Positions 18,443 through 18,622 of a stretch of DNA of 27,085 bases are shown here, piece by piece (within the stretch, counting starts at the first letter, position 1; each line of letters begins with the position of its first letter). Position numbers and translations under genes: made by a program. Source of the stretch: a virus (taxonomy: Duplodnaviria > Heunggongvirae > Uroviricota > Caudoviricetes); the IMG/VR virus record IMGVR_UViG_2563366854_000005, one strand, 5' to 3'. The notes beneath the pieces were generated by a model that saw only the letters and a list, made by a program, of their open reading frames with translations, had not been told where the DNA came from and searched no databases.

Positions 18443-18622
18443 TTACCGCCAGTATTCAATGCACATGACCGCCATGAACACCCCTAAAAAAAGGGCATTT
18501 ATATATCCAAATATTAATATCAAAACATCAACTTTTTCCATATACCTTGCTGTGAAGATGATGGGCATACATGATGCGAACAACCAGAACGCAACAAACA
18601 AAAACTGCAATGCGTTTTTCAT
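18443..18622 (-). CDS. Small two-helix membrane protein, 59 aa (MKNALQFLFVAFWLFASCMPIIFTARYMEKVDVLILIFGYINALFLGVFMAVMCIEYWR)
   Basis: ORF 18443-18661; start placed at the ATG with a perfect AGGAGG Shine-Dalgarno 6 nt upstream. Two predicted transmembrane segments. Confidence 0.6.
   Translation of the reverse strand: MKNALQFLFVAFWLFASCMPIIFTARYMEKVDVLILIFGYINALFLGVFMAVMCIEYWR

Follow-up and report, generated by a model that had tools for sequence, protein, structure and literature searches.

Enterobacteria and their prophages encode several kinds of small membrane and envelope proteins. GhoT is a small membrane toxin of E. coli with 57 amino acids (aa), and it shares the Pfam entry PF10753 with OrtT. 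The class II holins, or pinholins, of the S21 family are small lambdoid proteins with two transmembrane (TM) helices, whose TM2 bears the motif GxxxSxxxG. The Hok/Gef type I toxins (~50 aa) have one N-terminal TM helix and a periplasmic Cys-containing tail, and their loci include the mok overlap and Sok RNA. Morons and exclusion proteins are represented by lambda Bor and Lom, phi80 Cor, T5 Llp, T4 Imm, and P22 SieA. Here, a 59-codon open reading frame (ORF) of the virus record IMGVR_UViG_2563366854_000005 is compared with these systems. The whole stretch of 27,085 nucleotides (nt), called the window below, is a Qin-type lambdoid prophage, and its ORF region is 100% identical to E. coli ATCC 8739 and many other strains. 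The overall best explanation, favored by a modest measure, is that the ORF is the gene of a small inner-membrane protein on a moron-like cassette, with an exclusion- or defense-type role.

The ORF product shares features with each of these groups. It is like GhoT and OrtT in size, in the two-helix TM hairpin, in the very short termini, and in being encoded by an enterobacterial small-protein gene. It differs from them in that neither its 59-aa form nor a 72-aa form matches Pfam at E ≤ 1, in that there is no GhoS-like partner, and in that it is prophage-borne. With the S21 family it shares the small size, the lambdoid origin, two TM helices, and a glycine-zipper-like face on TM2 (GxxxAxxxG). 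In S21, however, TM1 is weakly hydrophobic and releasable from the membrane, the C-terminal tail is charged, and the gene is in the lysis cassette, whereas the ORF product has a strongly hydrophobic TM1 and a 4-residue C-terminus and is encoded in the nin region. The lysis cassette essD-ydfR-rrrQ-rzpQ of the window is ~8 kb from the ORF. Neither hhalign nor BLASTP aligned the ORF product with EssD, the pinholin of the same prophage, and homology to EssD was therefore rejected.

Hok and Gef are also small hydrophobic prophage proteins, and the ORF adjoins hok/sok in three of the four lineages described below. The product, however, has two TM helices, shows no Hok_Gef match in Pfam or NCBIfam at E ≤ 1, and has neither a mok overlap nor a Sok RNA of its own; the nearby sok match belongs to the neighboring hok. 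Like the genes for morons and exclusion proteins, the ORF is a single accessory gene, present or absent and in either orientation. Its predicted product is likewise a small envelope protein with a possible lipobox, as in Cor and Llp, and it is kept in cryptic prophages. The difference is the lack of homology (no PHROG exclusion family and 0 PADLOC families), and no recognizable promoter or terminator was found.

Conservation of the 59-Codon Frame

The ORF runs on the minus strand from ATG (18622–18620) to TAA (18445–18443), and its product is MKNALQFLFVAFWLFASCMPIIFTARYMEKVDVLILIFGYINALFLGVFMAVMCIEYWR. Four lineages were recognized: the window type, E. coli TA280 (78% identity), a Stx-phage variant (P0080, 54%), and a B2-chromosome paralogue (P0036/P0075, 41%). 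The length is exactly 59 codons in each, and the ORFs can be aligned gap-free, while gaps are needed in the flanking DNA. The differences between the window and TA280 are distributed 8/4/15 over the three codon positions, with a ratio of nonsynonymous to synonymous substitution rates (dN/dS) of 0.32; dN/dS is 0.24 between the window and the B2 lineage. In random-substitution simulations, the probability of as few amino acid changes was 0.005–0.055, and the probability of the frame staying open was 0.10–0.41.

Intactness was scored at loci sampled via flanking DNA, irrespective of the state of the ORF. A 21-mer from the hok leader retrieved 114 usable loci from IMG/VR, 19 of which include the ORF, intact in 19/19. 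A 25-mer downstream of the B2 paralogue retrieved 23 metagenome contigs as well as L090 and L091, a total of 25 usable loci, and the ORF is intact in 25/25. In the hok-leader sample, segregating sites number 5/180 in the ORF, 32/189 upstream, and 32/245 downstream (64/434 for the flanks; Fisher p = 4e-6). The ORF is about five-fold less polymorphic than its flanks. Nucleotide diversity (pi) is 0.012 in the ORF against 0.065 in the upstream and 0.043 in the downstream flank. The ORF is thus very likely to be a genuine translated protein-coding gene. The initial annotation, made from the letters of the window, had proposed a well-initiated gene for a small two-helix prophage membrane protein, and this proposal is sustained by the four lineages, the fixed 59 codons, dN/dS of 0.24–0.32, and intactness at 44/44 loci.

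That annotation had also placed a 59-aa ORF at these positions, with a perfect AGGAGG at optimal spacing and the only textbook initiation region between 18.1 and 19.7 kb, in an otherwise decayed region. The ORF exists as described, with its minus-strand location left unsaid. AGGAGG is present, followed by the spacer AATA. The spacing is not optimal, since the usual distance between the Shine-Dalgarno (SD) sequence and ATG is 5–9 nt and 4 nt is at the short end of the functional range. AGGAGG occurs five times in the window, always on the minus strand, where ~11 occurrences are expected from base composition. Only the copy at the small ORF has an ATG within 3–10 nt that opens an ORF of more than 11 codons. 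The other copy between 18.1 and 19.7 kb (19536–19541) has no start codon within 10 nt, in agreement with the claim of uniqueness. The decay of the surroundings is also evident in identical RefSeq genomes, where the Prokaryotic Genome Annotation Pipeline (PGAP) recorded two upstream pseudogenes with frameshifts or internal stops and an incomplete downstream ISNCY transposase.

The SD is variable. AGGGGG is seen in 6/27 haplotypes and GGGGGG in TA280, and weaker forms are found in the B2 lineage (AGGGA) and the Stx lineage (AGAGA). Masking of the SD by local RNA structure was rejected, as no significant structure was found around the ORF start (z = 0.23). In the window, an alternative 72-aa form could start from GTG at 18661. 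It was rejected because its N-terminal extension is not conserved and two lineages have in-frame stops just 5′ of the ATG. Due to these stops, the B2 and Stx lineages have no possible start other than the 59-codon ATG. Upstream, conservation is best in a block fitting T-TG-TTAA-T (TGTGTTTAAAT in the window), which is invariant in the four lineages at 29–31 nt 5′ of the ATG, while the remaining leader is diverged. This block is a candidate extended -10 element or other cis element.

Alternatively, the ORF may not be a functional gene, but a chance or decaying frame preserved by recent ancestry, by an RNA or cis element, or by the antisense strand. This is improbable. The start, stop, and length are the same, without indels, in four lineages down to 41% identity; the differences are in excess at the third codon position, and dN/dS is low (0.24–0.32); the two-TM hydropathy and specific polar residues are conserved; and Rfam has no family across the ORF. 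The antisense strand has an 85-aa frame which is annotated in GenBank phage records as "hornerin" (vB_EcoS-640R1 and 813R8) or "hypothetical protein" (PhiR42_1). It was rejected as a true gene because it is stopped in two lineages, and the annotation is probably a mis-call.

Several observations weigh against a retained functional gene, and the first three are those that speak for a non-functional frame. PGAP leaves the ORF unannotated in every RefSeq record examined. Phage annotators chose the opposite strand. Within lineages (the window type and the B2 lineage, L090 829–1008), the ORF has nine nonsynonymous but zero synonymous polymorphisms, a pattern that simple purifying selection at the protein level does not predict. 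Diversifying selection, a recent spread of the segment, or a constraint on the nucleotide sequence may be the cause of this pattern and of the low diversity; the last two could account for part of the low diversity. For the B2 remnant, polymorphic sites are proportionally fewer in the ORF (4/180) than in the flanks (36/703), but not significantly so (p = 0.11). In E. coli ECMA0423 (L009 2990–3180), a copy of the ORF is frameshifted and has lost its SD beside an intact hok/sok, which shows that the ORF can be lost while hok is kept. Alleles disrupted by insertion sequences (IS) are rare (P0037, P0084, P0034, and P0042); P0037 and P0084 read into GDAANLLI, which we take to be an IS1 end. The frameshifted copy and the disrupted alleles indicate that the gene is dispensable. 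MG1655 (K-12) is without the whole segment and BL21(DE3) is without the ORF, and it is for K-12 and BL21(DE3) that ribosome-profiling data are most plentiful. Scans for consensus promoters and terminators around the ORF gave no match, including at the T-TG-TTAA-T block, but these scans are uninformative; the known hok promoter region was missed as well.

Among 5426 complete E. coli genomes, 1567 have window-type DNA at ≥95% identity and 1045 have the remnant with the diverged B2 paralogue. Strains that carry the ORF include ATCC 8739 and ECOR13. Only Escherichia/Shigella sequences were returned when 1.84 billion representatives were searched exhaustively with an HMMER profile, and the same was true of two word-index searches. 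GenBank submitters labeled the ORF "hypothetical protein" or "membrane protein". Scans of the 59-aa form, the 72-aa form, and the TA280 variant against Pfam, NCBIfam, PHROG, and PADLOC gave a single match, a weak one of the TA280 variant to a PHROG holin (E = 0.015, 16 bits). A profile search of PDB sequences gave 0 matches at E ≤ 10. Foldseek searches of the AlphaFold2 model against PDB and BFVD found generic helical hairpins only, nothing under E = 0.9. Rfam has no family over the ORF itself.

A full-text literature search on peptide strings of the protein found no paper. A preprint on Hok diversity does not mention the upstream ORF. The main text of a preprint on the CFT073 small proteome does not identify the B2 paralogue, and SMP7 is placed there in the microcin island (bioRxiv 10.64898/2026.09.28.754932). 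As far as these sequence searches reach, the ORF product is an uncharacterized orphan family restricted to Escherichia/Shigella lambdoid prophages. As an orphan family it is new, but its kind is familiar, and it brings no surprising new principle. It is a concrete case of a conserved small membrane protein overlooked by current annotation.

Predicted Topology and Possible Roles

The two hydrophobic helices noted in the initial annotation are supported by Kyte-Doolittle maxima of 2.14 and 2.39 (19-residue windows), both clearly over the threshold for a TM segment, and every lineage has two peaks of 1.9–2.7. AlphaFold2, run on a six-sequence alignment, predicted helices at residues 2–24 and 30–58 with a mean predicted local distance difference test score of 72. 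The N-terminal end is basic; the loop ranges from neutral to strongly acidic. The positive-inside rule suggests an N-in/C-in helical hairpin. Judged from its sequence, the product is likely to be an integral inner-membrane protein.

Invariant or near-invariant residues are K/R2, L5, L8, W13, and S17-C18-x-P20-I21-I22 on the TM1 side, and L36, F38, G39, A43, G47-V48, and the C-terminal I-E-(Y/C)-W-R on the TM2 side. The G39xxxA43xxxG47 face of TM2 is invariant in all lineages. Only EYWR remains after TM2, so there is no charged tail.

TM1 can also be read as a lipoprotein signal peptide, cut by signal peptidase II and lipidated at Cys18. The mature product would then have 42 residues and, anchored by its lipid, cross the membrane once, the N-terminus being outside and the C-terminus inside. 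This is a real possibility, although not the preferred one, and is compatible with the best explanation given above. All four lineages match PROSITE PS00013 (Cys at 15–35, K/R in the first 7), with K/R in residues 1–7, an uncharged h-region, and [LI][FVT][AI]-S-C at 14–18, and Ser17-Cys18 is invariant. Residues 1–16 are less conserved than residues 17–59 in 4/6 lineage pairs; the respective conservation relative to the window is 0.25 vs 0.47 for B2 and 0.44 vs 0.58 for Stx. Small lipoproteins also have precedents in the phage exclusion proteins Cor and Llp and in the spanins Rz1 and T1 gp11. On the other hand, the uncharged hydrophobic run extends 7 residues beyond the Cys (CMPIIFTA) to 22 residues, a normal TM length, and 8–9% of TM1 shuffles pass the lipobox rule by chance.

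If the product is an inner-membrane hairpin, it would insert N-in/C-in with a basic N-terminus, an acidic periplasmic loop, and the conserved C-terminal IE(Y/C)WR. Packing or oligomerization might be mediated by the invariant small or polar residues, S17-C18-x-P20 in TM1 and G39xxxA43xxxG47 in TM2. The protein may act on the membrane or on a membrane protein. Its role would be a host-retained membrane function of the superinfection-exclusion or defense kind, rather than that of a stand-alone toxin. This role is tentative and ranks slightly above that of a membrane toxin. It is preferred because cryptic prophage remnants keep the gene undamaged, with a strong SD and without an apparent antitoxin, because it is on an independently oriented accessory cassette, and because the within-lineage changes all alter amino acids. 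The assignment is by analogy and by patterns of retention only, which also counts against it.

A stand-alone membrane-damaging toxin analogous to GhoT/OrtT or to a pinholin is rather unlikely. Such a toxin would be made from the early-right operon in lytic growth, oligomerize by the glycine-zipper face of TM2, and depolarize the inner membrane. A 59-aa two-TM hairpin is near GhoT in size and plan, and the invariance of G39xxxA43xxxG47 in all lineages is consistent with this mechanism. In the Qin-type prophage, the ORF is in line with the early-right operon, has a strong SD, and stands among toxin modules (hok/sok and relBE). The weak match of the TA280 variant to a PHROG holin points the same way. 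However, no antitoxin gene, antisense RNA, or SD-masking structure was found at the ORF. The ORF is intact with a strong SD in cryptic remnants and at the 44/44 flank-sampled loci, a survival that is unexpected for an unguarded toxin. The sequence is not related to EssD or to the Pfam models for GhoT/OrtT or Hok. The lack of a charged C-terminal tail and the position outside the lysis cassette also argue against a toxin of this kind.

The initial annotation had named a Kil-type division inhibitor among the possible functions. This suggestion found no backing in Pfam, NCBIfam, PHROG, or PADLOC, none of which gave a match of this type. The Kil, KilR, and DicB proteins are not known to be two-TM membrane proteins, and DicB is encoded elsewhere in the same prophage. 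The other suggestions of the initial annotation, a superinfection-exclusion factor or a toxin, are reasonable conjectures. If the product is an exclusion or defense factor or a membrane toxin, it would be a new minimal family among prophage small proteins and would help to explain the survival of this segment in cryptic prophage remnants.

Cassette Behavior and the Split hok/sok Locus

In the window type, ~296 nt (roughly 18732–18437) stand where L096-type phages have 33 nt. These phages have the same 114-aa upstream gene, which overlaps a 27-aa TM ORF through ATGA and is followed by hok. This indel indicates a discrete cassette made up of a 120-nt leader, which has a strong SD, and the ORF. 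As expected for a phage moron, the whole unit is found in some phages and missing from others, between genes that are direct neighbors in related phages.

The context differs among the lineages. The hok loci are without the ORF in 95/114 cases in IMG/VR, and the Qin prophage of BL21(DE3) has hok/sok without the ORF. The Stx-phage variant lies on the strand opposite to that of the nin genes, with no hok in its vicinity. In L092 (5650–6650) it is located between two anti-repressor-type genes, and Rfam matches to C4 antisense RNA and isrK are seen just downstream and to sRNA-Xcc1 just upstream. The B2 paralogue, MRKILMYLC...IECWR, is in a remnant at the Rac attachment site beside ttcA, between this gene and uspF, together with an integrase fragment, a DUF1627 fragment, a diverged hok 3′ fragment, and a frameshifted metal-transporter gene. 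It is the sole intact reading frame in this remnant; all its neighbors are fragments. Because the cassette varies between phages in its presence, its orientation, and its association with hok, it resembles a moron or accessory gene in behavior, not a part of hok/sok. Three features had escaped the initial annotation: the position of the ORF directly upstream of an insertion-split hok/sok, the discrete insertable cassette, and the fit of Ser17-Cys18 to a lipoprotein signal.

In the window, the hok leader is 93.5% identical to that of phage vB_EcoS-640R1, but the match stops at the hok ATG. The rest of hok, its coding sequence and 3′ end, is found at 14909–14645 and corresponds to hokD. The Rfam sok family RF01794 matches at 18182–18353 (104 bits, E = 9e-24), 90 nt downstream of the stop codon of the small ORF. 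The hexamers of the hok promoter, -35 TTTGCG (18383–18388) and -10 TAGAAT (18360–18365), are putative, as they were assigned from position only. The block between the two halves is bounded by a 15-nt direct repeat, GGAGAAGCAGGCTAT, at 14894–14908 and 18183–18197. The locus is unsplit in BL21(DE3) and in phage 640R1, and its 5′ half is deleted in MG1655. By these alignments, hokD (relF) belongs to a normal hok/sok locus into which 3.3 kb were inserted; it represents the 3′ half, and the 5′ half survives 3.3 kb away. The hokD gene of K-12 is known for having neither sok nor leader, and the split locus clarifies this old oddity.

The position of the ORF raises the question of a working partnership with hok/sok, as a Hok modulator, an immunity factor, or a co-toxin. 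In three of the four lineages, the ORF directly precedes a hok promoter; among these is the B2 paralogue (41% identity), behind which a diverged hok 3′ remnant is found. At least three unrelated families of small TM-type ORFs end 20–130 nt upstream of the hok leader, in 27/63 distinct phage contexts vs 5.5% for random positions in the same loci. These contexts share ancestry, however, so that the enrichment corresponds to about three independent events. In addition, most hok loci (95/114) and the Qin hok/sok of BL21(DE3) have no such ORF, the Stx-phage variant has no nearby hok, and in the window the hok coding sequence is now 3.3 kb away, yet the ORF is intact. A partnership is thus quite improbable. 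The ORF as an obligatory part of hok/sok was rejected, given the 95/114 loci and BL21(DE3).

Other small TM-type ORFs 5′ of the hok leader are observed in L096, L134, and other IMG/VR loci (L094–L213). They are of two types, one of 27 aa with MTWPEALTTVGIAMAVALVVYSICRWG and one of 30–34 aa with ...VYCLVVFLMDRLGN, and neither type matches named families. The 27-aa type overlaps the upstream gene through ATGA, and positions 18390–18436 of the window may be a remnant of a small TM-type ORF. A broader proposal is that the slot upstream of prophage hok/sok is a dedicated position for small TM proteins, which would work with Hok as modulators, immunity factors, or co-toxins. This is very improbable. 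If true, it would add an unrecognized protein component to a classic type I toxin-antitoxin system.

Surrounding Features in the Prophage

The features of the region are listed in Table 1.

Table 1. Positions in the window of the small ORF, its signals, and features of the same prophage.
Feature	Position	Strand	Basis or remark
Coding sequence of small membrane protein, 59 codons + stop	18443..18622	-	Indel-free homologues in four lineages, dN/dS, intact loci
Shine-Dalgarno AGGAGG	18627..18632	-	AATA spacer (4 nt), then ATG
TGTGTTTAAAT block, fits T-TG-TTAA-T; candidate extended -10 or other cis element	18652..18662	-	Four-lineage upstream alignment
Antisense ORF, 85 aa, judged shadow ORF	18459..18716	+	2 stops in B2 and Stx lineages; open in window and TA280
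Single-gene cassette (leader + ORF), approximate extent	18437..18732	-	MAFFT: window, 640R1, and TA280 vs L096; boundaries good to few bases
Upstream nin-region gene, PHROG 660 type, pseudogene here; native TGA 18733-18735	18733..19164	-	PGAP "frameshifted; internal stop"
5′ half of hok/sok: hok promoter (putative), sok region, mok start, hok SD; ends exactly at hok ATG	18183..18442	-	Rfam, 640R1 alignment
hokD coding sequence, 3′ half of same hok locus	14740..14895	-	98% identical to 640R1 hok coding sequence + 3′ end
3.27-kb block splitting hok: relE, relB, ydfV, flxA, ydfW, ISNCY transposase 16795-18108	14909..18182	.	
EssD, pinholin of same prophage	9991-10206	-	

Within the nin region, the ORF is flanked by a frameshifted gene on one side and by the 5′ half of the hok/sok locus on the other. 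The early-right genes are all on the minus strand, in the order dicC, a ydaT-like gene, a replication gene, DUF977, a methyltransferase, a DUF7167 pseudogene, the frameshifted PHROG 660-type gene, the small ORF, the ISNCY transposase, ydfW, flxA/ydfV, relBE, hokD, rem, ydfU, and the Q antiterminator. Intact 114-aa homologues of the PHROG 660-type gene are found in TA280 and L096. In the window, the ISNCY transposase frame is open for 437 aa; on identical DNA elsewhere, PGAP annotates an incomplete 341-aa fragment without the C-terminus.

In several strains (L240 = ETEC4089; matches H1–H8), IS1 is inserted in the leader ~100 nt upstream of the ORF, at about position 18720 of the window, between the ORF and the upstream gene. 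In the scaffold of E. coli TA280 (L006 7293–8051), the ORF and its leader appear twice, flanking an N run. This doubling is probably a scaffolding artifact, not a real duplication. At 19512–19541 (minus strand), a second perfect AGGAGG stands 23 nt 5′ of the ATG of the DUF7167-family pseudogene. In the spacer between the two is the hairpin GCCGCCCGAAAGGGCGGT, by which the SD and the start codon might be brought close to each other.

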